Assembly: GCA_964016885.1 (NCBI GenBank)
Contig: OZ024743.1
Coordinates: 162,936,001 to 163,000,000 of the forward strand
Direction: 5' to 3'
DNA from: Eledone cirrhosa
Taxonomy: Eukaryota
DNA length: 64,000 nt
Position 1 is the stretch's first letter. The number at the start of each line of letters is the position of its first letter. Positions 9,951-64,000 of the stretch are shown piece after piece. Below the pieces are notes generated by a model. That model was given only the letters and a program-made list of their open reading frames with translations, was not told the origin of the DNA and made no database searches. The position numbers and the translations under genes were made by a program.

Positions 9951-10040
9951 GCTGTAGATGGTACCGAACATCTCATCATCCAACTTGATACAATCACGTT
10001 GAAAGATTACTTTGAGACAGAAAAGGCATCTTTAAACTGA
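9951..10040 (+). CDS. ORC2: ORC2 terminal coding exon (AVDGTEHLIIQLDTITLKDYFETEKASLN*)
   Basis: TTTCAG acceptor, phase 0, TGA at 10038-10040; resembles the ORC2 C-terminus (DGxExLxI); AATAAA near 10089 and 10168. Confidence 0.92.
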   Translation, partial: AVDGTEHLIIQLDTITLKDYFETEKASLN

Positions 10041-18070: not shown

Positions 18071-18599
18071 ATAGTATACCTAGACTAACAGCATCTACCA
18101 TAGTATTCTTTGTATTTTTAGTACTAGTATTTGTGGACTATCATCTACTATAGTGGTAGACCCCCTTCAGTCATGAAGTTTTGCACCTGGAAAGTTCCCC
18201 TTTGAAGCACAAGCCTTAGCAAGGAGCGTTTGTGGAAGACCTGCAGTCGCCCTTGCATGTCAGTCTCCCCTCTCCCTGCCACCGATGTTGTCCAAGGGAA
18301 AAGCAATGCCAATACAGCTTGGCACCCATGACATTGCAACTCATTTCTACAGATGAGTGAACTGGTGCAATGTGAAATTAAGTGTTTTGCTCAAGAATGT
18401 AAAGCACAGCCCTGTCCGGGATAAAATTCACAACCTTACGATTGTGAGCCCAACAGTTTAACCATTAAGCCACACGCCTTCATTATCTACCATAGTACAT
18501 CTGGATTAACAGCACCTAAACTCCTGGCCACACTCATAAATCAGTAACAAAATGCTCAATTTTAATATCTCACATAACATTTACATTATTCTATATATA

Positions 18600-21520
18600 A
18601 TAATAATATAATAATGAAAATATTGTGTACAGTGCTCAGGTGCACTACAACTCATCAAAAGTGTATGTATAGTACATAGGGTAATGTACAAACGTCAGGA
18701 AAATGAACAGTGCAAGAGTCATGATATACACATGTGTGTATGTGTATGGAAGGTGTAGTTTTGGCGAATTTCGGGAAGCATGAGGGTTTTAAAGGATGCA
18801 GTGTCTCGGCAGTTAACAACTGACGCAGGCAGTTTGTTCCATGCTTCAGCAACTTTGAGCGTGAAAAAATGTTTCCGAAAGTCATGGGAGCTGTGCTGTT
18901 TTCTGACTTTGTAGGCATGTCCATGTGTGTTAGACACATGGAGATCAAAAAGGTCCTCAGGGTTGTTGTTGGCGAGATGGTTAATAACTTTGTGGGTGTT
19001 TATCAAGTCCATTGCCAGACGTCGGAGCTTCAATGAATCCATGCCCAGGGAAGCAAGGTGTTCAAAGTATGGTAGGTGTCTGGAGGGTATGCGCTTGGTT
19101 GCATGTCTCTGAACAGTTTCCAGGAGGTCAATGTTCTGAGCACGATAGGGGTTCCAGACTGATGATGCAAATTCCAAGTGTCGTCGTACCATAGCTGTAT
19201 ACAGCTTTAAATAGATGGCTGGAGACCGGTTAACAAAGGTCTTGCTGAGTGATGCCAAGACACCCTCGGCCTTCTTGACAATTTTAGAGATGTGCTTTGT
19301 CCAATGCAAATCGCTGCTGACCGTAATGCCCAGGTCACGTTCACAAGAGGACTTCTTGATATCAGTGTTGTGGAGGTAGTATGTGGATGCTGGATTTTTC
19401 CTCCCAAAATGCATGGTGGTACACTTGTCCACAGCCAGCTTCAGTTGCCAGTCTGTGATCCATTGCTGCATTGTGTCAAGGTCTGATTGTAGGAAAGAGT
19501 TATAGATTTCAGGATCTGTCCTTTTGATTTCAAGGTACAGCTTGATGTCATCTGCATATTTCAGTACTGTGGCATTCTTCAAGTTGGCATCTATGCCATT
19601 AATGTATGCAACAAACAAAAGGGGACCAAGAACAGATCCTTGTGGTACACCAGATGACATCTCATATGGTGAAGAATGCTGTCCTAGAACCGTGACTACC
19701 TCTTTTCGGCTGAGAATGAAGGATTTCAACCAGTTAAAAAGATCATCCTTCACACCCATTGCAGAGAGTTTCGCCATAAGTCTTTTGTGTGGCACAGAAT
19801 TAAAAGCCTTAGCGAAGTCAAGGTAAACAACATCCACCCATGAGCTGTCAGTGATCCGGGTAATGTCTTCAAGGAACTCGATAAGCTGATCACAGCAGCT
19901 GGAGTTAAGGATAAATCCAAATTGCGAGGGCCGGATGAGGCTGTGAGAGCTCCAGAAGTTCCAAAGTGTTTCTCTGACACAGGATTCCATCAGTTTGGCA
20001 ATGCAGTTAGTAAGACTGACTGGACCATAGTTGACAGGTGATGTGCGGTCACCCTTTTTGAACAGGGGAATGACACTGGCAGTTTTCCACTGCTCCGGAG
20101 TAGCACCATTGTTGAGACAGTATTGAAAGAAGAAAGAAAGCTGGTGCAAAAGGAAGTACCCGCCATGTTTGAGAAGCAGCTATGTAACACCATCAAGACC
20201 AGGGGAGGCATAGTTGCGCTTATTCTGAAGGTGACATCGCAGCATTGCAGTGATCTGGGTTGTGTGGCGATTGCGAAGAGGACCAACTGGAGAGTGAGGT
20301 CTCTGCTTTGAATGTAAATATTTCCAGAACACCTTACTGTCAGGATTGGTTGCTATGCACTGTTCAAATTCAAGCATTGCCTTTTTTGTCACTTGCTTGA
20401 GATGGTTGGAAGATTTATTCTGTTGGCATCTGATTTATGCAGTTTATATTCTCGTTCAGCATTCCGACGTTCTTTCCTGGCAAGTCGGACCGCTGAAGTT
20501 TCCCAAATTGCACTTTTGGGGTGGGTTTTTTTCCGCTTATGTGGCACTGATGCTGCACACGCTATCCATATTGAGTCCAGGATGCTCTGGAGTATAGTGT
20601 TCACATCTCCAGAGTTATAGAACTTATGCCAGTTTGGGCGCTGTAGTTCAGTGCAGTACAAGTTCCAATCTGCTTTATTCCAATCAAAGCAAGCAGATTG
20701 GAGATGGTTCTGGTTTTTGTTGCTGCCCACAAGAGCCAGATTGGCAATGATCATAGCATGATCAGAGTCGCCTAGAGGTTCCTCAGTAGTACAACTGGTA
20801 ACCACTTCAGGAGTAGTGGTGAAGAGCAGGTCCAAAGTGTTGGAGAGGTGACTACTTGTGACCAATTTGAGTCCAGCACTAGCTCAAGGAAATCATTTGC
20901 ACTTTGTGGCCAACGAAAGGTTTCCCAATCGATCTCAGGATGATTGAAGTCACCTGCAATAAACACATAAGTGGCTGTTTTCCTGGCAGCAGCTGAGGAT
21001 ATCGCAAAGCTGTGTGTCCTGATGGTAGTTTGGGGGGAGGGGGGGGGGGGGGGGGGGCGATAAACAACACCAAGCAGAAGTGTTGACATGGTCATACGTA
21101 TGTCACAGAAAAAAACTTCTTCTTGTGATTCGTTCAAATCAACGCAAGGAATTACCGAAAAATTTGAACGAGCGTAGACCATCACACCAACACGGTGATT
21201 AATGCGGTCCTTGCGGAACAGGTTGTACCCAGTAATGCTGAAAACCCCATCACAGAGTAAGGAATGTGCCCATGTTTCCGTGACTGTGATGAAGTCAGGG
21301 TCGATGCTTCTGACGTAGGAGTTAAACAGATGTATCTTGTTGCATAAACTGTGAGCATTTAAGGACAACAATTTGTACCCTGCTTGCAGTTTATGATGGT
21401 GTGTAGAGGATGGCAGGTTGTTCTGGTTTAGTTTCCCAGAGTTGTTTAAATTGCTGCTGCCAACAGTAGTAAACAGTACCTTCTTGAGGCACTTAAAACT
21501 AGGTGGACTGAGTATTGAGA
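18600..21520 (-). mobile_element. CR1-clade LINE (APE endonuclease + RT), frameshifted, in an MRPS36 intron
   Basis: TETW, GDFNHP, SDH, YLDFAKAFNSVPH, GVPQGSVLGP, YADD, ERDLGI motifs; (ATT)n-type tail. Confidence 0.93.
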
Positions 21521-25631: not shown

Positions 25632-25926
25632 GCGGGCATCATTTGATAAATCGGTATGGCGAGCCACCAACAATGAGACAAGAACTCAATTCTCAGTAAC
25701 CCCCCCCCCCCACCCCAGCAAACGTTTCAAACACCACATGTTGAAAAAAAATAGTTTGCCGACATCGATAATTCCTTATATTTTAGAATTTGATTCCGTT
25801 CAGTAAACTATTTTCCAGCATGTGGTGTTCGACATGCTTGGAGAAGCTGGGTCGCTGACAATGAAGTTCTAGTCATCGTTGACGGTTCGCCTTACAGAGG
25901 TATCAGGTGATGACCGCGAAGGTTAA
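25632..25926. mobile_element. Fold-back (palindromic) MITE, possibly piggyBac-like
   Basis: ~140-bp imperfect arms (GCGGGCATCATTTGATA / TATCAGGTGATGACCGC; AACACCACATG / CATGTGGTGTT); right end GGTTAA. Confidence 0.6.
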
Positions 25927-26844: not shown

Positions 26845-27605
26845 CAAATCAACTCTACAAAATGTCTTACATAAAATGTATAGGTATATACCTATACATT
26901 TAATATAATAAAGGAAGCAATGTTCTAATGACTATAAACTTGTTCCAGGTAGAATACTGACTATGTGCCTTTGGACAATGACATGTCGTTTTGGTAAATA
27001 GGTAAACGGGACAACATGAAACGAATGTTATCAGCTGAAACGAATTGGAAGCAAAACAGAGGTTGTTGTTGTTTACCATTCCTGCCGTGACCATGCCACC
27101 TTTTTTATGAGCGGGAATCTAGGACCACAGTATCCAATGTGTCATTTAAAAATAGCAGCTATTTCTAGTAAGTTGAGCGACAATATAGATGCTTCTTTTT
27201 TTCGCTCATATGACAGAGGTCAAATATATGGGCAAATCAGAAAATGAGCCTATCTTAAATTGTGATTTATAAGAAAATATACCATTATATAGTTGTATAG
27301 AGAAAGAATAAACATAAAAAATAAAGTACAACACTTTAGCCGATATTGTTAATTATGTAATCACTTACTCTTATCGTTCGGACACCAACTGCTGCCATAT
27401 TGAGTCAACCTTCTTTACACTACAACAGTTACTTCCCTTGTTACTAGATTAGTAGTTTTTCCAGAATTAATGTTATAGGAAGTTTAATCAAGTATATGTG
27501 AACTTTGAAATATCACACACACACATGCTCTCCAGAGATTGATCATTAAGAAATTAAATGACATGGCTAGTTTAAATCTTTTGGAGTCACTTAAATGTGG
27601 CATAT

Positions 27606-28634
27606 ATTTTGTTTGTGGCATATATTAATGACATAGATGCCAACTTAAAGAATGCCACAGTACTGAAGTATGCAGATGACATCAAGCTGTACCTTGAGAT
27701 AAAAAGGACAGATCCTGAACACTATAGATCTTGCTTGCAATCTGACCTGGACACAATGCAACAATGGATCTCAGACTGGCAACTCAAGCTAGCTGTGGAC
27801 AAGTGCACCACCATGCATTTTGGGAGTAAAAACCCAGCGTCCACATACTCCCTCCACATCACTAGTATCAAAAAGTCTTCTCGTGAACGTGACCTGGGCA
27901 TTACTGTCAACAGCGATTTGCGTTGGGCGAAGCACGTCTCTAAAATTGTCAAGAGGGCTGAGGGTGTCTTAGCATCACTCAGCAAGACCTTTGTCAGCCG
28001 CTCTCCAGCTATCTATTTAAAGCTGTACATGGCTATGGTGCGGCCACACTTAGAATTTGCATCACCAGTCTGGAACCCCTATCTTGCTCAGAACTTTGAC
28101 CGCCTGGAAACTGTTCAGAGATGTGCAACCAAGCGAATACCCTCCATCAGGCATCTACCATACTCTGAATGCCTTGCTTCCCTGGGCATGGATACATTGA
28201 AACTCCGACGCCTGGCAACTGACTTGGTAAACACTCACAAAATTATTAACCATCTCGCCAACAACAACCCTGAGCACCTTTTTGATCTCCATGTGTCTAA
28301 CATACGTGGACATGCCTACAAAGTCAGAAAACAGCACAGCTCCCATGACTTTTGGAAACATTTTTCACGCTCAGAGTTGCTGAAGCATGAAACAAACTAC
28401 CTGCATCAGTTGTTAGCTGTCGAGACACTGCATCCTTTAAAACCTCCATGCTTCCCGAGATTCGCCAACACTACACCTAATGTTCCCCTTCCATACACAT
28501 ACACACACGTATATCATGACTCATACACTATTCACTTCCCTGACATTTGTATATTATTCTATGTACTATACATGCACCTTTGACGAGTTGTAGTGCACCT
28601 GAGCACTTTACACAATAATTTCATTATTATTATT
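27606..28634 (+). mobile_element. 5'-truncated CR1 LINE
   Basis: ORF 27597-28583 with YADD, ERDLGI, VRPHLEF; same family and tail as 18600-21520. Confidence 0.92.
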
Positions 28635-28725
28635 AAATGCTTTAAACCTTTTGTTTCTTCAAAAGTGAAGGTGACATTTAATCATGAGGGAAGAGTCCTC
28701 AAAGACTCCTTCCAGCGGGTCCTAA

Positions 28726-30580
28726 TAATAATATTATAATGAAAATGATTGTGTACAGTGCTCAATTCATCAAAGGTTCATGTTTGTACATAGAATAACG
28801 TACAAATGTCAGGAACGTAAACAATGTATGAGTCATGATATACATAGATACATGTGTGCGGGTGTATAGAGGGGGAATATTAGGTGTAGTGTTGGTGAAT
28901 TTCAGGAAGCATGGAAGTTTTGAAGGATACAGTGTCCTGACAGTTAACAACCGATGCAGGTAGTTTGTTACATGCTCTGAGCTTGAAAAATTGTTTCCGA
29001 AAATCATGGGAGCTGTGCTGTTTTCTGACTTTGTAGGCATACCCACAGGTGTTAAACACATGGAATTCAAAAAGGTGCTCAGGGTTGTTGTTGGCAAGAT
29101 GGTTAATAATTTTGTCGGTGTTTACAAAGTCAGTTGCCAGATGTCAGCTTTAATATATCCATGCCCAGGGAAGCAAGGAGTTCAGAGTATGGTAGATGCC
29201 TTATGAAGGGAATTTGCTTGGTTGCACACCTCTGAACAGCTTCCAGGTGAATATTCTGAGCAAGAAAGGGGGTCCAGACTGGTGACGCAAATTCTAAGTG
29301 TGGCCGCACCATAGCTATATACAACTACAAATAGATAGCTGGAGAGCAGCCGACAAAGGTCTTACTGAGTGATGCTAAGACACTCTCAGCCTGCTTGACA
29401 ATTTTAGAGATGCACTTTGTCAAACACATATTGCTGCTGACAGTAATACCTAGATTACATTCAGAAGACTTCCTGAGATTAGTGTTGGGAGGGGATATGT
29501 GAACGTTGGATTTTTCCTCCCAAAATGCATGGTGTTACACTTGTCCACAGCCAGCTTGAATTGCCAGTCTGTAATCCATTGCTGCATTGCTGCATGGAAA
29601 GATTTATTGTGTTTAAGATCTGTCCTTTTTATTTCAAAGTACAGCTCATGGCATTCTTTAAGTTGGCAACTATGTCATTAATATATGCAACAAACAAAAA
29701 GAGACCAAGAACAGATCCCTGTGGTACACCAGATGACATTTCATAGAGTAAAGAATGCTGTCCTAGAACCGTGACTACCTCTTTTCGACTAAGAATGAAG
29801 GACTTCAACCAGTTATAAAGATCATCTCTCCTACCATTGCAGAGAGTTTTGCCATAAGTCTTTTGTGTGGCACAGAATTAAAAGCTTTAGCAAAGTCAAG
29901 ATAAATAACATCCACCCATGAGCCGCCATCAGTGATCCGGGTGATGTCTTCAAGAAACTTGATAAGTTGATCACAGCAGCTGGAGTTAGGGATAAATCCA
30001 AATTGTGAGGGTTGGATAAGGTTGTAAGAATTCCAGAAGTTCCAGAGTGTTTCTTTGACACAGGATTCCATTAGTTTCACAATGCAGCTAGTAAGACTGA
30101 CTGGACGATAGTTGACAGGTGATGTGTGGTCACCCTTTTTGAACAGAGGAATGACACTGGCAGTTTTCCACTGCTCTGGAGTAACACTGATGTTAAGACA
30201 GATTTGAAAGAAGAGTGAAAGCTGGTGCAGAAGAAAGTACCCACCATGTTTGAGAAGCAGGTACATAACACCATCAAGACCAGGAGAGGTATAGTTGCAC
30301 TTATTCTTAAGGTGGTATCGCAGCATTGCAGGTGTAAATTCCAGAGTTGTTATAGAATTTTATGTCAGAGTTGGTGGAGATGGTACATTTTAGTTTTCAA
30401 CAGTAAAAAAAGCCTGCATAGCATTCAGCAATGAGTTCTGTTTCTTTGGGATCGACAGTAATCTGGTTTGTGTGGGGATTGCGAAGAGGACCAACTAGAG
30501 AGCGAGGTCCCTGCTTTGAATGTACTTATTTCCAGAACACATTGTTGTCAGGGTTAGTTGCTATACGCTGTTCAAATTCA
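28726..30580 (-). mobile_element. Degenerate CR1 LINE, inverted relative to the 27606 copy
   Basis: SPGLDG, NYRPVSLTS, YLDFAKAFNSVPH; same tail. Confidence 0.9.
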
Positions 30581-43539: not shown

Positions 43540-46500
43540 ACAATAATAATAATAATACTTTCTTTATTAACCACAAGGGTTGACACAAAGTATAACATTG
43601 AGGACAACACAGGACGGTACAAATGGGCATTTTTGCATGTAAAAAACAAAAACAGAGGATGTAACAAAAAAAGAAAACAATGAAAAATTCCCCAATAGGG
43701 GGGAGACTTCCGAGGGTCGCTCGTGAAAAAAGCCTACAAAAAAGCCACGGTTACCCTGACCGCTAGGGCAAGTGCCCTCTTACAGTTTTCCTCCTACGAT
43801 GCTACACGCACATGCTCAGGGCAGGCCCATTCACACAGGCCATTCTTGCCTCTCTCACCCACCTTTCAACAAACTGGCTGGAAGGCAGCACTTCCCTCTC
43901 CACCCTGATTTTCCTTTTCAGGTGAAACCTGAAAAAGTTAATGAGGGCGTCACCGAAGAGGAAAGTACCCGTCTTCAACTCTTTCAGACGTATCCACCAT
44001 ACGATCTATTTTACCATGGTCACCAGGCAGATAAAAACTGCCTGCCCAGCTAAAGGAGGGCGGCAGAGCAATCCTCATGATGGACTCAACTGATAGCCGG
44101 ATCCGTCCTACACGCGACAGCAGATGTTCGACATAAAGCCACAAGTCAGCAATGCTCGGACACTGGACGAGTGCGTGCAGGGTGGTTTCGTCGCCCTGCG
44201 CGCACCGCAGACAGGCCCGGCTGCCGGCACTTCCATGCCTGTAGAGTTTATTCCAAACTGGCAAGGCTCCTCCGGTAGCACTGCCAGGCCAGGGATTTCT
44301 GGAAGTTGTCCATGGGCCCCGGCCCGAAAGTTCTCCCAAAGAGATTGGCTAGTTGATTTTCGTCAACGCCCAGGGTCTCCCCAAGGACATCGTCGCTCTT
44401 TCCCTCCACTAACCCTCTATAGAACGCCAAGGTGGAGTTTCCACCGATCACATTGCCCGACTGGTCGAGGGCTGTAAGCGCCTGAAGACATTCCAGTCTC
44501 CAAGCACTCCCTCTCGGTCTTCGCTTGACCCAGGACTGCAGCTCCGTCAAGGAGACGAGCTGGGGAAAGACGCGTCTAGCAAAGGGCGACAACATCTGAT
44601 CACCGTCGAAGAAGAGGTGGAGATGCCGTAGCCTGAGCGCGTGTCTGCACATCATCAGCCACGGCATGCCCAGCACTCCGCGTAGAGGGTGTTGATAGCA
44701 GATGGACCGCCTGACCATCAGAGGACGTCCCTTCCACAAAAAGCGAAAAAGCAAATGCTCCAGTGCAGTCAGGCGAGGCTTAGGACAAGGCACGATGGTC
44801 AGGCGGTAGTAGATGACGTATGCGATGTACGCATTCGCCACTTCCGCTCGACCTTTCAGGGATAGCTTCCTCTCGGCCCCTTTTCTGGGTGAGAGAGGCC
44901 AACCTGCTCGTCACATCATCCCAGTTTTTGTCCGTCTGGAGGTCCAGACCGAACCAGGCCCCTAGCAATTTAACTGGTCTGTCCGTCCAGCGACATGGAC
45001 CTGCCTCTCCAGGTGCCGAGTTGCAGGACCACCGACTTTTCCTGGTTGATCATTGCTCCTGTCCCCGCCTCGTATTCTCTTAGTGTGGTGCCGATCGCCT
45101 CGATGTGTTTGGCATTCGACACCACTACGGTGACATCGTCCGCATAAGCTGACACGGTTCTTCCGCATCCCAGTTCGCGCGGGACTCCGCTCAACATCTC
45201 CAGTTTGTGCAGTAATGGCTCGAGAGTCAATACATACAACAGGGACGAGAGAGGACATCCTTAGCAGACCGGGCGCATGATGTTGAACGGTCTTGAAAGG
45301 TGACCGTTCACTCTCACCACAGAGCAGATGTCGCTGTGCATGGCAGCGATCCAGCCTCTGAAGACGTGCCCAAAGTCAGCCGCCCTCGGGACTGCCGCTA
45401 GGTAACGATGGTCGACCCTATCGAAAGCTTTCGACTGATGTAAATTGATAAAAGACCCACCCGTGCCAGGTTCCCTAGCTACCCTCTCTACAATGTATCG
45501 CATGATGTGGAGGTTGTCGTGGATGGATCTGTCTGGAATGGCGCCTCTCCCACCAGGCCACCGACGACAAGCGCCAACTTCTTTGGTAGCACCTTAGCCA
45601 AAATCTTGAACAAGTCTGGCATATGTACGTAAAGTTCGTAGGGCAGACCATCCAAACCAGGCGATTTACCCATTGTGCAGCCAGTCATTGCCTCCCGTAC
45701 TTCAGCAGCTGTTATCGGCTTTTCGCAACACTCCGCCTCAGTGGCTGAGAGCCGCAGCAGTCCATTGAGGTAGACGCTGAAGTGCATCCCGCGATCCAGC
45801 CCGCCACTGCTCCCGAACAGCTGAGCAAAGTGCTGCTGAAAAACCGCACACATCTGCCCGGGATCGAGTAGCATGCACCCATCGTGGTCCGTCAAAGACC
45901 AGATCGTGGCTTTGTTGGCATGCCGCGCCTCTGCCACCCGGGCCTATCGAACAGCTTTCGTCCCCTCATGTCTGAGAGCACGCGCCCTAGCTCTGACAAC
46001 GCAGCCTTTGTGCTTTGTGTTGAAAAATTGGTCGAGAGCCAATTTCGCCGCAAGTACGTCGGTGGCGATGCCCTTGCTAAGCGCTTCGTCTAATTTTCTA
46101 ACTAGTTCTCCCTCTGCTCTATTTTTCTCTATCACTAACGCCTTACTACACCTAATGGACTCTATTCTAATCGCTCTTTTCAGGGCAAACCACCATTTGT
46201 TGTTGACGATGGCCCCCGTCAATGCCTGCTTAACTAATTCGCTAATCCGGTCTCTGTAAGCTTTGCGTGCTGTTAACAACGCATTTAGCTTCCAGTAGCC
46301 GGGTCCTTGTCTATGAAGCTTATATAAGTCAACCTCACAGATCATGAATTTGTGGTCCGTGTAGTCAACTATCTTGAATTGTGGACAGCCTATGCTAGAC
46401 CTATCTATTTCCCTACAAAATACCCTATCTTGATATGATCTGGATGACCCGATACGATTTGTCCAAGTCCACATTGGCACATTCGGTAAATCCAACCAGT

Positions 46501-48810
46501 ATCTGTCAGATAGTTGAAAAATTCTGAGCGGGTTTGTGAGGCTTTTACACCCTCCTCCCCTATCTGCTAATCCCACACTGTCCCAGCGTGCATCTAAGAT
46601 CCCGTTCCAGTCGCCTACTAACACTAAAGAGCGGGACGTTCCAAAAAAGGTCACCAGACACCGGAAGAAGTCAGGCCGTCCTGCTCCTGTTGGGGCATAG
46701 ACGGTCACTAGCCTGAAAGCTTGCCCGTCTCCGGTGGTCACGTCCATCGCCACCAATTTACCTTCTGGGTCCAACACAGTCTTCGGAACAACACAGTCAC
46801 CCCCCCCCTTTCTTCCCGACCCGGGACGGCTTGGAAATGTGTACACCACGTAGCCGCCGAAAATGGGTGCGAATGTCCATGCCTCGGAGATTCTGGTCTC
46901 GCTGATGGCCACCACATCTATGTTTAGCGACCTGAGATCATTGAGCAGGTGGCTCTGCTTCCAAGACAATCCCAGGCCACGTGCATTTATGCTACCTATC
47001 CTGAGAGAAACCATGTTGGCTAGGATAGGAGAAAACAAGTGAGAGGGGAAAAGTAAAAAATTTACCTGTGTCTCTTTTTTAAGAAGGAGGTGGGTGATAC
47101 ATCCCTCCAACCAGTGGTGGATTTCTCTATGAGAATGCCTGTGAATATTCTTTTAGTGATGTTCATTCGGTAGTCTCCAGTTGATGTAGGGAACATTTTT
47201 TTTAATGTCATGTAATTTTTGGCGGTGATTTCTATTATTTTTATGTGTGTGTGAGAGGGGGGGGGGCAATTTTTGTGGTCTGTACGTAGTTTGTTTCTGT
47301 GATGTTGGTGTGCTGTTGTATGCAATTTAAAAGCTTTGTGTTGTCTGTCTATAGCTGTGTATTGTGTCTGCTGTTGGGGTGTTGCTGCTTTCTGTGTTTG
47401 CTGTGGTGTTGTTGGAGGTGTAGATGCTAATGGTGGCAGTGGTGGTGGTGTAGGTGGTTGTTGATGGTGGTGGAGGAGGTGGGGGTCGTTTTCATATTCT
47501 TTTTTTAGTTTCTTTCTTCCTCTTTTTTTTTTTGGAGGGCAAAGGTAGGGAGTTCTTCCTTTCTTTGCTGGGATGGTTTTCCATCCTTCGACCTCATCGC
47601 ACTCCTTGTCCAATTTAGCAATATCAGGAAGGGGCATGCTCTCCATTGGTTCTGTTGGTGGCGGCGGAGATGGTGCTTTTGTTGTTGGGGATAGTGATTT
47701 TTCTTCTGCCACTGTGTTCTTGGTTGGTTTGTCTACTCCAGTCGCGGGGCACGGCGTAGGGAGGAGTGAGCGCGTGTCCGTTTTGGTGAGTTTGGGGCAG
47801 AAGCCCTTAAGGTGTGTCTTGTCACCGCATCCTTGACACCTTGGGCACCTACCTTCGACAGTCACGGGTAGATGGCTGCCGTCATCCAGGTCTATTACAT
47901 CGGGGATGACCTCGATGCTCTCATGGTTTGCTTGGATGATTAACTCCATCCCCGACCCTGTCAAATTCTCCTGCCTTATTTGCATGACGTCGAGGATAGT
48001 TGTTGAATCCTCGACGTCAGCGAGGACGGCCGACATCAGCCACGTGATCTCCACTGAGGGCGGAACCTGGGTTACTCGAACCCTCACCACCCTCTGGCAA
48101 CAGTATGTGGGCATCATTATTATTTAGTCACTGTGGAGTGGCGCAATGGAGTGTGCTCTGGCTTCTTCCGGTGTAGCGAAGGGTACATCCACAATGCCAT
48201 ACCTCGATCCTGAGGCTATGTTTGTTTTCTGTGCCCAGACAGCACCCATAGCCCTTTGGACCTGTGACTCCATTACCCGTTCGACTTGGCGCGATTTTAT
48301 TCCGATTGTGCGATAACTGACCGCACACAAAAGCTTGTTTTTCATTATATTTGCTTGGCGGGTGAGACTTACCCTGTGTCCGGTCTTTTTAACCAAGATC
48401 TTGGCTTGCTTTATCCCAGCGTTGGTGATGTGTACCCATTCAACATTTTTTGCAGCTTTAGCAAATGATGTGGTTGTGGTCAGCTGTGCTGACTCATCGC
48501 TAGTCTTGCTTTTGTTGTTATTGGTAGTGTTCTTGTTGGTTTCTTTTTCTTCTGTGTTGCTGCTGTTACAGTTGTTGCTCCTTGGGTTCTTTATGGTTGT
48601 TGCTGCTGTTATTGTTGTTATTGTGGTGGCGGTGGTGTCTGATCCTTCTAATGATGGAAAATTTTCATCGTAGTTGCCACTGTTGCTGCTGCTGTTGTCA
48701 CTGCCACTGCCACTGTGGCTGCTGCTGTTTCTGTTGTTCTTGCCTTTGCTTTAATAATATTCAACTGACTTACTCCGTTGTAGTTACAGCTGTCTCGAGA
48801 AATTCAGCAC
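43540..48810 (-). mobile_element. Near full-length, degenerate Tx1/L1-clade LINE (ORF1 with CCHC knuckle; ORF2 APE-RT-Zn finger)
   Basis: ORF1 CQGCGDKTHLKGFC; ORF2 from ATG 47014: SINARGL, SETR, GDWN, TDH, YWKLN, KSPGLDGLP, KAFDRVDH, YADD, CLRC...ETTLHALVQC; AATAAA and (TTA)n tail. Confidence 0.92.
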
Positions 48811-49870: not shown

Positions 49871-52008
49871 CAATAGTGAATTTAGTGCAGAATATTAATA
49901 GAATTAATAATATAAACTTAAAACCTAACCAGAATACCATTAATACCCCTAGCAATATCCAATATAATAGTACGGCTCCTAGTAACTTAAATTTAGATAA
50001 ATGTAACTGTAGAAATAAATCTAACTGTCCTCTAAATAATAACTGTTTAGTTAAAAACATAGTATACAATTGTAATGTAAACTCTTTTAATTATGTAGGC
50101 TCTACCTCCACAGATTTTAAGTCCCGTTTTAATAACCACAAATGCTCTTTTACGAATATTAGTAAAAAATCTTCAACTTCTCTATCTAATTTACTATGGG
50201 ACCTAAAATCTTCAACTTCTCTATCTAATTTACTATAGGACCTAAAATCAAAGAACATTAACTATTCTTTACTTTGGAATATTATCTCCAAAGCTTCTTC
50301 ATACAATACTTTATCCGAAAATTATGCTCTTTGTATAGAAGAAATATTCTTTATATTAAAAAGTAAGGATTCTGTTAATTTAAGGAATAATTTATTCAGT
50401 TCTTGCAAACTTTTAAATATATATATAAAATGTAATGTATAACTTATCTCTTTTACATAATGTCCTCTATAACTTATTTTCCATTAACTCTACTTCACAT
50501 ATATTATTATTACACCTATCGATAAATCATTAAATTCCTTTATATAACTGCTTGGAACTCCTTTAAATAAACATTTTTCTTGATAACATTTTTTCTTGAT
50601 AAATTTACTGAAGGGTTTAAGAAAATTTTTTGAAAATTCCTTTGAAGGGTATAGAAAAATTATATTTTATATTTTATATTTTTATATTTTTATATTCTTA
50701 TGTTTTTCAAAGGTTTAATATAAAATATATATGTATTCAAATGTTTAAAATATATATATATCCAAATGTTTATGCGATAAACATAATGTTTTTTTTATGT
50801 ATGTGTGGTATAACCTAGAATTTATGATAGAAAATGTAACTTTTTAACTTCTTAACCTTATAGCATTTAATCCTTCTTAGATTCATCAGAGTTATTAATA
50901 AATCACTAATAACTTCCTTTACGCTTTACTGCTATTATAATACAAATAAGGGGTTATTCTTCTGTAAACTCTCGGAATTTCCATAAATTTAGAATTATTT
51001 GGATATTTTAAATTTTTAACTTAAAATTTTTATAATATATATATTTTATAATAAATTTTTAAAGAATTAATAATATATATATTTTATAATAAATTTTTAA
51101 AGAATTAATAATATATATATTTTATAATAATTTTTTAATAATTAATAATATATATATTTTATAATAATATGTATATTTTTAATATATTTTTTTTAATAAT
51201 ATATAATAGTTTTTAATATTTTTAAATTTTTAATTTTTTAATTTTTTAATTTTTTAATTTTTTAATTTTTTAATAATCTAACATTTAAACTAATTATTAA
51301 ATTATTAAATTATTAATTAAACATTGAATCAAATTTATTAATTAAACCTTTAAATAAATTTTTTCAACCTATCGTTATAAATAGTGTAGTCAAAACATAA
51401 TGAATCCTGCTGTATTATTCATCCACGCTATATTCGTTTCTTCGCTTCTTCTTTCCTCTCACGTAAACACACTTACGCTATATTTGTCCTTATAACTAAT
51501 ATTTTCTCTCACTTAAATATAATCACGCTATACTCTTTCCACTGGCAAAAAATATATATAAACAGTTCTTCTTTTTCTCTTTCTTTTTTTTCTCTCTCCA
51601 TCACAATATCACTCTCTTCCAACGGTTTAATTTAAATATACCGTTATTTAAACCTTTCGGACACTCATTTGCATACTCAATCATAACCTTATATCACCCT
51701 CAATAAATCTAATATCTCCACTATCCAGGAAGCTCCAACCGTTAAGGTTGTCTTTTTTTTTTTCAGGGTATGTCAATATTTATTTATAAAACTAATCTGT
51801 ATTGTATTTTATCTGATGAAAGCGCACCATAATTTGCCTTGGTGGCCCTTGAAATATGTATAATAAAATAAATATAGTTTTATAAATATAGTTTCCATTT
51901 GTTAATATATTGTATATTTACTCCAATAATTTGTTGAGTGCTTTATATCAGTTATAAAAATATTTTTAAGCTTGTTGTATCCCAACAAATTAAATATAAC
52001 CTTTGCAT
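49871..52008 (+). mobile_element. 5'-truncated Naiad-type Penelope-like element (GIY-YIG remnant ~49950-50442, long AT-rich 3' region, terminal hammerhead)
   Basis: CNCRNKSNCPLNNNC (CxCx5Cx5C), NIVY..YVGST..FKSRFNNH; 39-bp duplication introduces TAG; bounded by (TA)n on both sides. Confidence 0.75.
51805..51870 (+). ncRNA. Type-I minimal hammerhead ribozyme (family A)
   Basis: TATTTTAT-CTGATGA-stem II-GAAA-TATGTA-TA-ATAAAATA; downstream ~35 nt nearly identical to those after 39070. Confidence 0.85.
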
Positions 52009-52143
52009 ATATATATATATATAGGGGGTGAGTTTTATTGTAGTACAATAAACAATGCAGATATCGGATAAGTAGCACTCTACAGTTTGTAGGACTGGAT
52101 TATAAATAATATAAGATCAAAAGATGGTTAAAAGAATTCCATG

Positions 52144-52214
52144 TATTTTATTATGCGCATTTCAAAAACAAATATCATCATGCGATGACATTTGCGTTTT
52201 CATCAGATAAAATA
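52144..52214 (-). ncRNA. Hammerhead ribozyme (family B)
   Basis: CTGATGA...GAAA-TGCGCA-TA with perfect 8-bp stem I on minus. Confidence 0.85.
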
Positions 52215-52334
52215 GGTAGACATGATATGAAGGTTAAAAAACACTTGTGAATAGTGCAGTTTTAAATCAACATATATGTTGATTTAAAACTGCACTATTC
52301 ACAAGTGTTTTTTAACCTTCATATCATGTCTACC

Positions 52335-52405
52335 TATTTTATCTGATGAAAACGCAAATGTCATCGCATGATGATATTTGTTTTTGAAATGCGCATAATA
52401 AAATT
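52335..52405 (+). ncRNA. Hammerhead ribozyme (family B), mirror copy
   Basis: TATTTTAT-CTGATGA-AAACGCAAATGTCATC...GATATTTGTTTTT-GAAA-TGCGCA-TA-ATAAAATT. Confidence 0.85.
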
Positions 52406-52479
52406 CATGGAACTCTTTTAACCATCTTTTGATCTTATATTATATATATATATATACACACACACAGGCCCACAGCAGG

Positions 52480-55282: not shown

Positions 55283-55469
55283 GATAAATCTACCAAAAGT
55301 TTACGGTAGTGTCCAATCCGTATGAAGAACTCAATGTAATCCGGATATCATGAAAAGAGAAGATGCATTCAAAAACTACTTTCGGTGAAAAATAAACGGA
55401 AAACAGAGTCAAGATAAATTAATAAAATAATGAATAAACTAAGAAACAGTTCCTTATATTAAAAAAAAT

Positions 55470-55611
55470 TCATCATTTTACGATCGTTTCTAGGATATAT
55501 ATGTGTTAGAGTTGGTATGCATATTCTATAGATCTATGTACAATATTTATACAAACTATCAGAGGGAATATACATACCTACACATATATATGCTGTCTTC
55601 AGAAATAATGA
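55470..55611 (-). ncRNA. Hammerhead ribozyme with extended stem II (family C)
   Basis: Minus: TCATTATTT-CTGAAGA-~105-nt hairpin-GAAA-CGATCG-TA-AAATGATGA; 9-bp stem I, palindromic stem III, GUA site. Confidence 0.82.
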
Positions 55612-56273
55612 TATTTGTTTATTGAAAAAAACAAAGATTCAATACAATAGGTCTGTTTGGGAACAGGTTTTGAATTGACCAATCAGGAGATAGTGAGGGT
55701 CAAGATAGTAATATAGTAATAGAAGAACCTTAAATTATGGGTAGAGGAAGGTAGATTTCAGTTTGGGATGGAAAAGAATATTATGAATGAAGGATTATTT
55801 TGCTGACCTCAGAAATAATTTTATTTGTTCATTGAATAAAACCAACGAAGATCTAATATATTCTATCTGTTTGGTAAGAGGTTTAGAGTTAACCAATAGA
55901 AAGTTAATAATTGGCCAAATGGTAAAATAGTAGTAATTGAAGCTTATTTTAGGGGTGAAAATAGGTCAGGTGGTCAGTGAAAGGTATACAAGCAGTTGCT
56001 GTTATAAAATAGTAATGCCAATACAAATATCTAAGGTGACCAAAGTTTTAAGATAAGAATGTTAGTGAAAAAAATACATCTATGAAAAGAATATAAAATT
56101 AATTTAATTGATGGGTATATTTATATTGATAAAATTATACTAATACATATAGATATGATAAATAAGAGTTAGATGCAGTTGAAAAGTGCTGTTAAAGATG
56201 AGGGGAAATTAAAAGAATATAAAAATAATATATATATATATATACTTATACACATATATATATATACATATAT

Positions 56274-56363
<90 letters not shown>

Positions 56364-56414
56364 TTATATATATATATATACATATATATACACATACACA
56401 CACACACATACACA

Positions 56415-56498
<84 letters not shown>

Positions 56499-56910
56499 TG
56501 CATATATACATACATACACATATATATACACATACATACACACTTATATATACATATAATTATGGGTGGGGGGGGATTACATTTATTAGTGAGAAATAGT
56601 AAATATATATAGTTTTCAAGGAACATAGAGTCATAACCTGAAGTTAAAGCATTATATATGTTTACTTAATGGTATCAGTTTTAGGAAATGATATTTGTAA
56701 GAAGGAAAGCAAAATTATGTAGTTCATCAGTAGTAGAATATTAATTATAGGTTAACTAAATTAAAAATAGTTTATATATTAATTTCTAAAGTGTATATTA
56801 ATTAGGTTTATAATATTTAAAGCAGAATTATGTAGTTCATCAGTAGTAGAATATTAATTATAGGTTAACTAAATTAAAAATAATTTATATATTAATTTCT
56901 AAAGTGTATA

Positions 56911-57574
56911 TTAATTAGGTTTATAATATTTAAAGGTTTTTCTCAGTTTATGATTACACGATATTATTAATTCCTGTCGCTTATTTAATAGGATATCCTT
57001 AGATTTCATTATTTCGAAAAGTTCTTGGGAACATAATCTACATTCATTTCTACTATTTTGATAAGGGGTGGCCCTTTTGAGCACACTCCAGGTCAGGTCA
57101 TATTCTATATTCCTCTTTCTATAACTATTAATTATTTCAGCTAGAGATGTTGTATTAGCTAGTGCGGCATTTTTAAAACTATGTTTGTGGGTATTAAATC
57201 TTACCTTAAAATTGTTAGAGGTAGCTCCTATATATGAATAAATTGAGTCCTTAGTGTTAACTTTACATTTATATACTATGTTATTAACAAGGCAATTTCC
57301 TTTTAATGGACAGTTTGCCTTTTTTCTACAGTTACAACTTTTCGTGAATCCTGTATCTGAGGAGATATTATGGTTAGTTTGATGTACTGGTGGTATACTC
57401 ATTGTTTTTTTACATGTATATGCATTATAGGCACTTATATTTTGTTTTATGTTTTTGGTTGTTGAGTAGGAGAATTTAACCGTTGATCTATTTAAGATTT
57501 GATGGTATTTGTGGTTTGGCGGGAAGTTTTTCTCTAGGATATTAAAGAATTTTTTAGGTATATTATCCTTTTTT
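56911..57574 (-). CDS. PLE RT C-terminus, CxCx5Cx5C linker and GIY-YIG endonuclease (5'-truncated, open)
   Basis: FPPNHKYHQILNRSTVKFSYS...CNCRKKANCPLKGNC..NIVY...YIGAT..FKVRFNTH...CRLCSQE...LNKRQE..SCNH. Confidence 0.88.
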
Positions 57575-58717
57575 AGGTTATGACTCTATGTTCCTTGAAA
57601 ACTATATATATTTACTATTTCTCACTAATAAATTTAATGCCCCCCCCCCCCAATAATTATATGTATATATAAGTGTGTATGTATGTGTACATATATGTGT
57701 ATGTATGTATATATGCATGTATGTATATATATATATAAACTCTAAGCTATTTATCACTGCTCCCCAAGGTGAGCTGAATTTTGTAATCCCATACAAACGG
57801 CTGTTATTTCTAGCACTATGTGTGGGACGTTAGAGGACTGGAATAAGCCGTGTGCAAAACCTCGTGTATTTTCGCTACGCTAACCAGACCTTAGATATTT
57901 TTCTAAGGTTGAGTTATTTTATTTTTATCTGGGTGCCTATTGATAAACACAGAAAAAGTTGATTAACTCACTGCTAATTAGTTAATTATTTTACTATTAT
58001 ACCATCCTTTGTGAAACATGTTTGATATATATATATGTGTGTGTATGTGTATATATATGTATATATATATATGTGTATAAGTATATATATATATATATAT
58101 ATATATTATTTTTATATTCTTTTAATTTCCCCTCATCTTTAACAGCACTTTTCAACTGCATCTAACTCTTATTTATCATATCTATATTAGTATAATTTTA
58201 TCAATATAAATATACCCATCAATTAAATTAATTTTATATTCTTTTCATAGATGTATTTTTTCACTAACATTCTTATCTTAAAACTTTGGTCACCTTAGAT
58301 ATTTGTATTGGCATTACTATTTTATAACAGCAACTGCTTATATACCTTTCACTGACCACCTGACCTATTTTCACCCCTAAAATAAGCTCCAATTACTACT
58401 ATTTTACCATTTGGCCAATTATTAACTTGCTATTGGTTAACTCTAAACCTCTTACCAAACAGACAGAATATATTAGATCTTTGTTGGTTTTATTCAATGA
58501 ACAAATAAAATTATTTCTGAGGTCAGCAAAATAATCCTTCATTCATAATATTCTTTTCCATCCCAAACTGAAATCTACCTTCCTCTACCCATAATTTAAG
58601 GTTCTTCTACTACTATATTACTATCTTGACCCTCACTATCTCCTGATTGGTCAATTCAAAACCTGTTCCCAAACAGACCTATTGTATTGAATCTTTGTTT
58701 TTTTCAATAAACAAATA

Positions 58718-58859
58718 TCATTATTTCTGAAGACAGCATATATATGTGTAGGTATGTATATTCCCTCTGATAGTTTGTATAAATATTGTACATAGATCTA
58801 TAGAATATGCATACCAACTCTAACACATATATATCCTAGAAAAGATCGTAAAATGATGA
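58718..58859 (+). ncRNA. Hammerhead (family C) inverted copy with stem III mutated (AGATCG)
   Basis: Mirror of 55470-55611 with one C>A change that breaks the palindrome. Confidence 0.6.
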
Positions 58860-58958
58860 ATTTTTTTTAATATAAGGAACTGTTTCTTAGTTTATTCATT
58901 ATTTTATTAATTTATATATATATATATATATAGTTATGTAATAAACAACATAAGATAA

Positions 58959-59698: not shown

Positions 59699-60381
59699 TA
59701 CTAAAATTTCACTCCAACTAATTAGTTTCTGAAAGGGAATAAACATAAACTAATTAGTTGGAGTGAAATTTTAGTAAGAAAGTTAATTTTTATAATTTTC
59801 TTATTTTACGTCTTTCATATTATTGTTCTGCATCCCCGTGCATTGAACCACAAAGTTACTAAGACAAAACCTATATATTTGCTGGCATAGGTATGCATCT
59901 ATATATATATGTTAGTAGATATACTAATTCTTTATAATTACCTCCAAATTATTTTGTTGAGCCAAAATTGACCAAAACTGCTACTATAGTTCATAGTAAT
60001 GGTTCGGCTGCTGTCTTCTTAACAAACCACTCCTCACTGATTAACCTCGATGTCACGTGATTGATTCTTTTGAATTTGCCACCGACGTAGTAGGCAGTGA
60101 TTTTTTCAATGTCTTGGAACTTAGTCCACGCTTTGCTTTTTTCCATCCACTGAATTATTTTTGTATAAGTTCCCTGTGTCCACGCATTGCCTGGAAACTT
60201 AGCTGAGAATAGACTTCCCTGATGACGAAAGGCTTCTCCGTACGTTTCTTCGGAAACTATGTTTATTCCCTTTCAGAAACTAATTAGTTGGAGTGAAATT
60301 TTAGTAAGTAAGTTAATTTTTATAATTTTCTTATTTTACGTCTTTCATATTATTGTTCTGCATCCCCATGCATTGAACCAC
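59699..60381 (+). mobile_element. Non-coding PLE-like or retrozyme-like mini-element (inverted stub, direct repeats, hammerhead)
   Basis: 59699-59747 is the reverse complement of 60258-60306; 59747-59851 repeats directly at 60277-60381. Confidence 0.7.
60215..60293 (+). ncRNA. Hammerhead ribozyme (family E)
   Basis: TTCC-CTGATGA-C-GAAAGG...CCTTTC-A-GAAA-CTAATTAG-TT-GGAG; palindromic stem III, short stem I. Confidence 0.68.
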
Positions 60382-60451
60382 TCTACTACCTCAAGTATTG
60401 AGTACTTTGGTGCGTTATGGTCCACCTGGTTCCTTACCACATTTCCTTCGT

Positions 60452-60482
<31 letters not shown>

Positions 60483-61100: not shown

Positions 61101-61810
61101 ACATAAATATATATACATACATACATATATATATACATACATACATATATATATACATACATACATATATACATACATACATATATACATACATACATAT
61201 ATACATGGTGGCTGCCAACTCGTTTTCGAGTACGGCCACTACTTTATATCCATGTAGGAGAACCCCTACCGATGCGCTGAACAAGTGTGACTTTTTAATC
61301 CAGCCAGCGACTTGAACACTCTAGTACAAACACTACACTTGTGACAATTATTGACACATAGTGCTGGGCCCATGGTACCATGTGATGACAAGTGCAGAGA
61401 GATCTCCAGATATAAAGCAATGCCTGTGCCATGAAGCTTTTATAGTGAGTAAAGGTACTGCATAAAGCCAGTCCCACTCTCTTAACCAAGATGATATTTA
61501 CCAAAAAGAAGAACAAGTCAACATCATTGGATACCATCAGGGTTGCAGGTGTTATATCAGAGTTTTCCTTCTCCTAGAATTCTGCCTTGCTTTTGGATGG
61601 CCATTGACTCTTAAGAGCTCCTTTGCCCTTTGACAGATTTTGTTTTTAGTCCTGCAGGATGTCCAAAGTCACCCTCCTCACCAAGAAACCTTGGTGGGGT
61701 TGCCAGTTTAGTCGCCAACAACCCGACCATGGGACAGTTTGTACTGGGATACATGTTACTGGTGACCTGACATACATACATACTTACATACATACATATA
61801 TATATACATG

Positions 61811-62760
61811 ATGGCTGCAAACTCTTGCAATCGCTTGTCAGATTCAGATGTGGGATGCTTGGATATGGCTTTTCAAACCTGCTAGAGACTTGCACTCTTT
61901 CACACACTGACGACAACTATGGATCTCTCTGGCTTGAGGTCATGCATCAGGTTGCCCGTGAACCCTCACAACATCGTGGAGATCATAGTTCACTGGTTCT
62001 CTTTGAACATGGCTGCGACTGTGGCTCCTGAGACCAGATTTGCTCAAGCAAATTTTTCCACACTCAGGGCACTTCAATTCAATGGAGACACCGATCGTTT
62101 CGAGAGATACACCAGGGCATTGCTTACGCACATCCCATTTGATCTTCTCGTGCTCTATGCGTCTGTCCTCAAAATTATGGACCCCATCATTCACCATTCC
62201 ACGCCAAGTTTCTCTTTCAAGAGCTTCTATCTCCCAGTCAGCCATCATCAAACCAGTTTTTTTCAATGTGTCCTTTACGCAATCCTTGAATCGGAGCTTT
62301 GGTTTGTGAGGTGGTCTCTTACCCCCACAAAGCTCGCCATACAAGAGTTGTTTTGGGATTCGATCATCCTCCATTCTTCCGAGGTGTCTGGTCCATCGCA
62401 AACGCCGTTGATGGATGATACTCTCAATGCTCCGACACTCACTTCTCTCAAGGACCTCAAAATCACTCACATGCATCTGCCACTTGATTCCGAGCATCTT
62501 TCTGAGACACTGCTGGTGAAACCGTTCCAGTCTGTGGATATGCTGTTTGTAGGCAACCCATGTCTCACATGCATACAACAAAGCTGACAGTACACATGCA
62601 GCATACACTCTCACCTTGGTCCTCATTGTGATTCCTCGCCTGCACCAAAGACGGTTGTTGAGCCTTCCAAATGACTCACTTCCCCTACTAACACATAGAC
62701 CAACATCTGCATCCAGAGAGCAGGTCACACTCAGAATACTCCCCAAATTATCAATTGAGA
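61811..62760 (-). mobile_element. 5'-truncated RTE LINE
   Basis: ORF 61940-62893: LGS, LLYACETW, LERFHQQCLR, RLRW..H..RM...RIPKQLLYGEL, C-terminal C2H2 finger. Confidence 0.9.
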
Positions 62761-62795
62761 TTGGGAGACGGTAGAAGGATAATAAAGAGAATGAG

Positions 62796-63636
62796 AGAGG
62801 GATGTGTAGAAGTATGAAGTTGGAGGGTGAGATGTGATAGGGATCAGGAGCTGTAAGGTCTGAAACAGCTGCTGTATTTGGTTGGTGTTGCATTTTCGGC
62901 CAATGCTGTGGAATGAGTGGAAGATACTAAGTAGGAATTGTTGAAATTGTGGAGTTGGGTAGTAAAAGGTAGTACAGCTGCTGTGATTGGTTAGTATAGC
63001 ATGGTCGGCTAATGCTATCTTTAAGTTGGTGGGGTGGGGGTGCTGAGGCTGCAGAGGGCCGATGGGCTGCCTCGGGGTGGGCGATGGGGGAAGGGAAAAA
63101 CGAGCGAGGAGGGGGATCGATGGTGGAAGGAAGTGATGGGAGGGGACGGGAGGAAGAGGAAAGCATGGGGGGGGGGGGGGGGGCAGGTACATCTGCCTAT
63201 GTAAGCTGAGGTTTCCCCTATCTTGTTCGGCAAGTGGGGTTTTTCAGCCCTTGTTTTCTTCTTCCCCCTGTCTCCTCCTTTCACTTCCTTCCACCGTCGA
63301 TCTTCTTCCTCGTTCGTTTTTTTTCCCCTTTCGCCTACCCCGAGGCGGCCCATCGGGCCTCTGTATCCTCGGTACCCCCACCCCAGTAGCTTGAAGATGG
63401 CATTGGCCGATTGCGCTAACTAATCATAGCAGCTGTGTTGGACCCCAGAGATTTTGTATTGCTTTTTGCTGCCCAATTCTACAATTTCAATAATTCTTGT
63501 TTGGTGTCTTCTATTCTCAACTCATTCTACAGGATTGGCCGAAGGAGCAGCACCGACTAGATGTAGCGGGTATTTTGGACTTTGTAGTTTTTGTTTTTTG
63601 TCACATCTCACTTTCCATGTTTTTGTGTATCTTTCT
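62796..63636 (+). ncRNA. Candidate long G·U-rich hairpin RNA (arms ~62796-63170 and ~63247-63636)
   Basis: Arms pair almost continuously only if G·U is allowed on the + strand; hand alignment gives roughly 70 G·U versus about 3 A·C positions. Confidence 0.7.
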
Positions 63637-63669
63637 GTATGTACATAAATCTGTATACATACCCGCACA

Positions 63670-63789
<120 letters not shown>

Positions 63790-64000
63790 AGAAAGTAAGT
63801 CCATATAATCATTTGATAAAATATATACAGTATTTCTCCTCCCAATCAGCATAATCAACTACATAAAAAATCAATTAAACGGGGCTATAAGTTTAAAATG
63901 TACCTATGAAGAAATAATAGATAAATAAATGATAGCTATTTATCCACGATCAACAGCCACAGAAGATTTACCTAGTATTTCTAATAGCCCGTAGAAACTG

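Follow-up and report, generated by a model that had tools for sequence, protein, structure and literature searches.

A fold-back in the genome of Eledone cirrhosa that is very probably a heritable copy of an ADAR-edited Penelope-like hairpin RNA

ADAR hyper-editing has been described as fixed in avian retroviral DNA, namely in the U3 region of a Rous-associated virus (Felder 1994), and an inverted repeat of avian leukosis virus was likewise hyper-edited (Hajjar and Linial 1995), both as cited in the excerpts of PMC12925331 and PMC8586724 consulted here. APOBEC leaves comparable 'DNA editing' footprints in LTR retrotransposons which, according to the excerpted text of Knisbacher and Levanon (PMC4866542), are absent from 19 invertebrate genomes. 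The neighbour preference of ADAR appears in the available parts of PMC8586724, PMC4365171 and PMC5625713 as a depletion of G on the 5' side of the edited adenosine, and the last of these sources reports for invertebrates an enrichment of A downstream of the edited site. Among retroelements, Penelope-like elements of the Hydra clade are characterized in the consulted portion of PMC8557442 by RWK, DKT and CxCX5C motifs, (TA)n targets and an inverted duplicate of their 3' part, and an antisense template has been proposed for Penelope elements in the excerpt on Adineta Penelope (PMC3846280).

Here we describe a fold-back from Eledone cirrhosa which combines features of these systems. It lies in a stretch of 64,000 nucleotides (the window; positions 162,936,001 to 163,000,000 of contig OZ024743.1) on a chromosome-scale contig of 379 Mb in the 3.0-Gb assembly GCA_964016885.1. 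We propose that it very probably arose from a hyper-edited double-stranded RNA that was reverse-transcribed and integrated in the germ line, and that it is thus a heritable copy of an ADAR-edited Penelope-like hairpin RNA. In the partly accessible literature searched, which leaves most subscription journals outside, we met no published case of a retrotransposon copy that ADAR had hyper-edited and that then became fixed in a germ-line genome.

Structure and source of the fold-back

The hairpin reads antisense from 62750 to 63254, and then sense from 63252 to 63636, through the 3'-untranslated end of a dispersed repeat family (Table 1). A preliminary description made from the letters alone had given two arms of about 380 nt, which we recovered, around a loop of about 75 nt, which measured about 85 nt; the left start that it placed at 62796 had to be moved, since homology of the left arm to the family begins 46 nt further out, at 62750. 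Its statement that no credible ORF is present held, the ORFs across the hairpin being low-complexity artefacts. Relative to the family, the left arm carries one 21-nt and one 7-nt deletion, and the right arm is without about 420 nt of the usual 3' end. In the loop, a run of 17 G (63167-63183) stands where the family has a G/A-rich run, probably as a result of editing plus slippage.

Table 1. Parts of the hairpin locus and its flanks in window coordinates, with ancestral A now read as G on the + strand
Feature	Position	Strand	Description	A-to-G changes
5'-truncated LINE 3' end	61810..62748	-	presumably RTE-like	
Outer extension of left arm	62750..62795	+	antisense retroelement 3'-UTR, no pairing partner in the locus today	8/24 (A-rich, poorly aligned)
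Left arm	62796..63166	+	antisense copy of Penelope-like 3'-UTR	50/134
Loop	63167..63251	+	antisense piece continues to just beyond the ORF's stop codon	G17 run; two further sites, 63195 and 63225
Inversion junction	63252..63254		3-nt microhomology, just past the family ORF's stop codon	
Right arm	63252..63636	+	sense copy of the same Penelope-like 3'-UTR	27/86
Right-arm bulge	63437..63457	+	21 nt, deleted from left arm	one site, 63440
TA/TACA microsatellite flank	63637..63790		right of hairpin	

The preliminary description recognised no family. As judged from homology, the hairpin is a head-to-head duplicated piece of the 3'-untranslated end of a Penelope-like retroelement. A first look gave 1935 and 1774 candidates for the two arms, and among the best 40 scored per arm identity to other copies reached 87% for the right arm and 76% for the left. 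Most matching copies hold the segment once. Two longer members (L062 and L063) contain broken ORF pieces encoding a reverse transcriptase with RT motifs followed by a GIY-YIG endonuclease; the Pfam match to GIY-YIG in the family protein (E 0.012) is below curated cut-off strength, and Atlas protein neighbours of the family carry GIY-YIG, HTH_animal and RVT_1. RWR, DKT and CxCX5C motifs were read in the ORF pieces of L062. Family members end in (TA)n and frequently carry an inverted duplicate of the 3' end; an inverted 5'-truncated copy beside the body, together with a bias for insertion into (TA)n, was seen in L011, L027, L008, L003, L019, L062 and others. By these motifs, the family would have the features of Hydra-type Penelope-like elements.

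The full-length member L062 (2024-6502, on contig C28) has inverted arms of about 1.3 kb which cover the region of the hairpin, and L009/L012 are likewise full-length with arms of about 1.3 kb; as ADAR substrates of the present day they are the best candidates. Contig C28 carries several near-identical elements, which suggests segmental duplication. No Rfam hammerhead match was obtained in 8 loci, and no hammerhead core in the window fragment. Among 11 loci scanned, a hammerhead-core-like motif was present in the family 3' region of one, L008, antisense to the ORF (region 1500-1530, reported at 1771 on the + strand of that locus); other copies differ at two core positions, and we consider the motif a relic or a chance occurrence.

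Further pieces of such elements were observed around the hairpin. Another Penelope-like copy (window 55414-58915) has 660-nt inverted arms, 99% complementary, surrounding a C-terminal GIY-YIG ORF piece (56914-57585, - strand) with 42% identity to the protein of the hairpin's family; its arms differ by 1 G·T and 4 A·C and are thus unedited. A Penelope-like endonuclease fragment with 35% identity to the same protein lies on the + strand at 49999-50409. The 3'-terminal tail common to the hairpin's family, with the motif that also accompanies L011 and L013, was located at 60350-60460. It ends in (TA)n and is an insertion of its own, within a cluster where retroelement ends pile up on microsatellites. 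In L061 (2585-2780), immediately to the right of the window, a miniature fold-back between TA runs is built only of the 3'-terminal ~55 nt of the family, in both orientations, plus the tail.

Strand asymmetry and direction of the changes

Aligned with each other as strand-neutral DNA under match/mismatch scoring only, the arms gave 380 columns, consisting of 284 Watson-Crick pairs, 69 G·T, 3 A·C and 24 others. The preponderance of G·T over A·C (binomial p 2.6e-17) agrees with the first count of about 70 against about 3, from which the arm differences had been described as nearly all G·U, and the 29-mer pair quoted as an example is indeed paired at 29/29 positions, 7 of them G·U. A check on base composition that had been put forward against the asymmetry left it standing: columns drawn from the composition of each arm yielded a mean of 49.6 and a maximum of 65 G·T of 72, and none of 20000 draws reached 69. 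When both strands of 62796-63636 were folded as RNA, the + strand was far more stable (-592.6 kcal/mol, z -40.9) than the - strand (-382 kcal/mol, z -24.9), the z scores being taken from 20 shuffles per strand.

Inverted repeats that decay neutrally had been expected near parity, and this was the case both in the control fold-back at 25632-25926 (G·T 7, A·C 11) and in 53 other inverted repeats of at least 80 columns from the window and the fetched loci, which summed to 338 G·T and 383 A·C (printed sums of 414 and 385, reduced by 76 and 2 for two rows that duplicate the target locus). We also noted a LINE RT fragment folded back on itself (27600-30360 and 18590-20250; about 950 columns, G·T 39, A·C 64). 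Its asymmetry (p 0.018, uncorrected) resolved in a three-way comparison into an excess of G>A (29) and T>C (14) in one arm, not of A>G, and looks like ordinary decay. The window also contains a perfect 174-bp palindrome without spacer, 98% complementary, at 52101-52448.

Each difference was oriented with 40 family copies as outgroup, among which at least two elements are represented by both of their arms. On the + strand, 70 A>G and 0 T>C were counted for left arm plus loop, and 27 A>G and 3 T>C for the right arm, compared with 0-15 A>G and 0-5 T>C in the 40 copies themselves. Before exclusions, 97 of 266 A/G sites had changed from A to G. In the strict count, from which the G17 run and the A-rich end with its poor alignment were dropped, 75/230 A>G stood against 3/245 T>C (Fisher p 2.8e-23), with C-to-T at 3/156, and the A>G rate across the family copies had a mean of 1.8% and a maximum of 7.0%. 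The A-to-G load of the hairpin was thus 33%, versus roughly 2% for other changes. Measured against the single closest real copy (L018), the two arms had 63 and 22 A>G, and 2 and 6 T>C. Unbroken runs of 13 and 12 A>G were found, the longest same-type transition run in the 40 copies being 4. Traced through the family alignment, 74 G·T columns derived from A>G in the left arm (45), A>G in the right arm (26) and C>T (1), with 2 unresolved.

Folding the hairpin with the changes undone gave -603.1 for the + strand and -592.8 for the - strand, compared with -595.2 for the edited + form. Since reverting A>G removes the strand asymmetry, the G·U pairs are A-U pairs whose A has changed, and since the reverted fold is no weaker than the edited one, the wobbles were not selected for pairing. 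The asymmetry arose on one nucleic-acid strand, which was almost certainly RNA, folded or paired. The part of the preliminary description that saw the sequence as shaped in single-stranded form is therefore retained, and its candidates, namely a precursor of hairpin RNA or endo-siRNA, a rod-like mobile RNA and an unclassified element, are not supported as sequences maintained by selection on G·U pairs.

ADAR signature, proposed origin and rival explanations

The changed adenosines are not distributed evenly among 5' neighbours: A>G affected 39/76 sites after T, 27/69 after A, 6/37 after C and 3/44 after G (chi-square p 8.6e-7, strict set), and the background A>G of the family shows no 5'-G deficit. 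On the 3' side the dependence did not reach significance (p 0.065), with G (24/57) and C (14/33) highest and A (16/72) lowest, which differs from the A enrichment of invertebrate editing in the excerpt of PMC5625713. Strand, spectrum and neighbour preference together point to ADAR as the enzyme, and predicted adenosine-deaminase domains (PF02137) matched at four places in the genome. In the reverted fold, 67/198 paired and 8/28 unpaired adenosines were edited, so that edits were hardly enriched in pairs. Edits were also present in the parts that now are without partner (62750-62795, the loop and the 21-nt bulge), at 23/59 adenosines, 10 of them in the unreliable G run. Because edits extend into these parts, the original duplex was presumably longer than today's hairpin and was trimmed during or after copying; such a lost duplex is an extra assumption that the ADAR reading needs.

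The events may be reconstructed as follows. A copy of the Penelope-like element with an inverted duplicate of its 3' end, of the kind found in many family members, would have been transcribed into an RNA corresponding to the + strand of the window and holding both orientations, so that a long hairpin or sense-antisense duplex could form. ADAR would then have edited both sides of this duplex, deaminating roughly one adenosine in three and converting A-U pairs to I-U. Reverse transcription of the edited RNA would have copied inosine as G, and the product would have entered a TA microsatellite in the germ line, where it may have been joined to the truncated 5' end of the LINE. Both orientations must already have been present in the RNA, because the arms carry different edits, and snap-back of a cDNA would mirror them.

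Three enzymatic routes can be considered for the copying, roughly graded. The element's own reverse transcriptase has an even chance: its TA target fits, yet its own priming should keep the 3' end, of which about 420 nt are missing. An RTE enzyme is a tentative candidate, and would have required a 5' inversion of the twin-priming type, the LINE sense strand being opposite to the edited strand. In-place RNA-templated repair seems unlikely, although it would explain the missing parent. As a test of twin priming, we looked for RTE copies carrying a TA run at the junction site, using a pattern that by design does not match the window itself; none was found.

Both the parent and further edited copies were searched for in the assembly. 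A 23-nt junction motif, with one mismatch allowed, occurred a single time, and no unedited parent with the same junction was found. Four motifs, each needing two edited sites, were each present only at the hairpin locus; such motifs catch only the minority of edited copies in which both sites are edited and the rest is unchanged. An edit-tolerant 35-nt pattern gave 35 matches; the corresponding loci, four of which had one or two suggestive changes, showed no hyper-editing. One candidate with 9 A>G in a short part (L128) was rejected by eye as a microsatellite alignment. Altogether, hyper-editing was absent from the 70 other family loci inspected (the 40 of the alignment and 30 more, all distinct), the window locus being 1/71. 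The sample is small, since the first 40 had been chosen from 1774-1935 candidates for their similarity to the window's arms. The missing parent, the lost 3' end of the right arm, the lack of a significant 3' neighbour bias, the weak enrichment of edits in pairs and the single locus are among the points against the origin that we prefer.

Through one extra base (62749), the hairpin is joined to the LINE, whose clade we take to be RTE-like from the look of its protein. The LINE has 25 changes in 945 nt from its family majority, 1 of them A-to-G, similar to its 24 relatives, and the A-to-G changes end sharply at the junction. Its left flank (about 61770-61810) is the same kind of TA/TACA tract as the right flank of the hairpin; no target-site duplication was made out at the locus, and microsatellite flanks would hide one. 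Private changes other than A>G numbered 13/704 in the arms versus 24/945 in the LINE (p 0.40), so that both are of similar age. Elsewhere in the window (43950-48750, - strand) lies a degraded, possibly near full-length LINE with ORF1-like, endonuclease and RT pieces, presumably L1/Tx1-like from the look of its proteins.

This junction bears on the first rival, hypermutation by a reverse transcriptase which, running on from RTE RNA into a - strand hairpin RNA, put dG opposite U under a skewed nucleotide pool. The polarity of the LINE, sense on the - strand, would suit such a run-on, as would the similar ages of the two parts. The LINE part, made by the same enzyme, has only 1 A>G in 945 nt, however, and slippage-assisted misincorporation, expected at A next to G from retroviral G-to-A hypermutation, should favour the very 5'-G sites that changed least (3/44). 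We regard this explanation as very unlikely.

Deamination of adenosine on DNA, with ADAR or another deaminase attacking either single-stranded cDNA or the DNA half of an RNA:DNA hybrid, would also leave A-to-G on one strand, in unpaired parts as well, and with ADAR-like neighbours if ADAR was responsible; ADAR is active on RNA:DNA hybrids. The changes nevertheless occur only within the self-complementary segment and do not go on into the LINE, an edge that deamination on DNA would not be expected to respect, and C-to-T, the usual damage of single-stranded DNA, is found at 3/156 sites only, which makes this route highly improbable.

A functional hairpin-RNA or structured-RNA gene whose G·U pairs were kept by selection would account for a + strand that pairs over nearly its whole length and makes a much more stable fold than the - strand. 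Under such selection C-to-T would preserve pairing too, yet it gave 1/74 G·T pairs, though it is commoner in the family (4.4%) than A-to-G (2.2%); the A-to-G load is far above that of other changes, and the fold gains no stability from the changes. The locus occurs in a single copy, and in Rfam nothing reached the gathering score; 97 matches below it were mostly microRNA-precursor models on hairpins or microsatellites, and no ribozyme was among them. With a very small remaining probability, this reading is largely refuted, and the locus most likely has no present function.

Regarding the reality of the locus, the edited left arm is present, with 0-1 letters different, in contigs from three public runs, of which two continue through the LINE junction. 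Depth is 2-7 there, while repeats reach depths near 10,000 as in a genomic library; the long contig pieces listed cover only left arm and loop. A RAD-seq run yielded only paralogues among the matches listed. The three contig sets come from one sample of unrecorded type, possibly the assembly's own source, so that they argue against a consensus error and are not an independent confirmation. An assembly or sequencing artefact, for instance a cDNA read built into the contig, would fit a unique locus and supporting runs that may share the assembly's sample, but against these contigs, this depth and the ordinary private substitutions and deletions of the arms, which imply time spent in the genome, it can practically be dismissed.

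Implications and comparison with known systems

RNA editing is normally not inherited, and the copy described here shows a route by which a burst of A-to-I changes may become fixed DNA. Because it lies in a chromosome-scale contig and has aged like the neighbouring repeats, the event would have taken place in the germ line. About 75-97 directed changes in one event correspond to many times the element's age in ordinary mutation. Hyper-edited copies of this kind would make repeats look older than they are and could be mistaken for G·U-rich hairpin genes under selection. Penelope-like RNA with inverted repeats could evidently outlast hyper-editing and remain a template for reverse transcription. 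The locus itself is probably inert, and rare. Whether animal genomes hold a little-noticed class of RNA-editing fossils, in which ADAR hyper-edited repeat RNAs were rewritten into the germ line, appears to us evenly balanced. If they do, ADAR acts on retroelement RNA in germ cells, its past site preferences are readable from DNA, and the fossils mark the RNA-template strand of Penelope-like inverted repeats. On this last point, the loop of the present locus is antisense on its edited strand. This is compatible with the antisense template proposed in the excerpt of PMC3846280 and is no proof of it, since an element with a long 5' inverted arm, transcribed in sense and later deleted for part of its loop, would read alike.

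Within the parts of PMC8557442 and PMC3846280 consulted, the family resembles Hydra-clade Penelope-like elements in having a reverse transcriptase followed by a C-terminal GIY-YIG, (TA)n targets and an inverted 3' duplicate. DKT and CxCX5C are common to both, and RWR here in place of RWK there (PMC8557442, same excerpt) is one conservative change. Unlike those elements, the copy in the window is a non-coding remnant that has lost both of its outer ends.

With APOBEC footprints, as far as the excerpt of PMC4866542 goes, the locus has in common strand-biased clusters of one substitution type relative to the subfamily, fixed through retrotransposition. Those footprints are G-to-A and stem from cytidine deamination of cDNA, whereas here the change is A-to-G, affects both arms of a duplex and follows the neighbour rule of ADAR. 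The locus would hence be an ADAR counterpart of the APOBEC footprints in vertebrate retroelements, with a simple signature for screening. The dense A-to-G changes, the long duplexes and the 5'-G depletion are likewise those of the hyper-edited repeat RNAs of metazoan transcriptomes in the available text of Porath et al. (PMC4365171, PMC5625713); those are differences between RNA and DNA, whereas the edited state here is DNA. Closest are the avian retroviruses, in which, according to the excerpts cited at the outset, clustered A-to-G changes in an inverted repeat were also captured by reverse transcription, at nearly 50% of A compared with about 33% here, while the carrier in E. cirrhosa is a fragment of a non-viral retroelement in a chromosome-scale contig of an animal genome.
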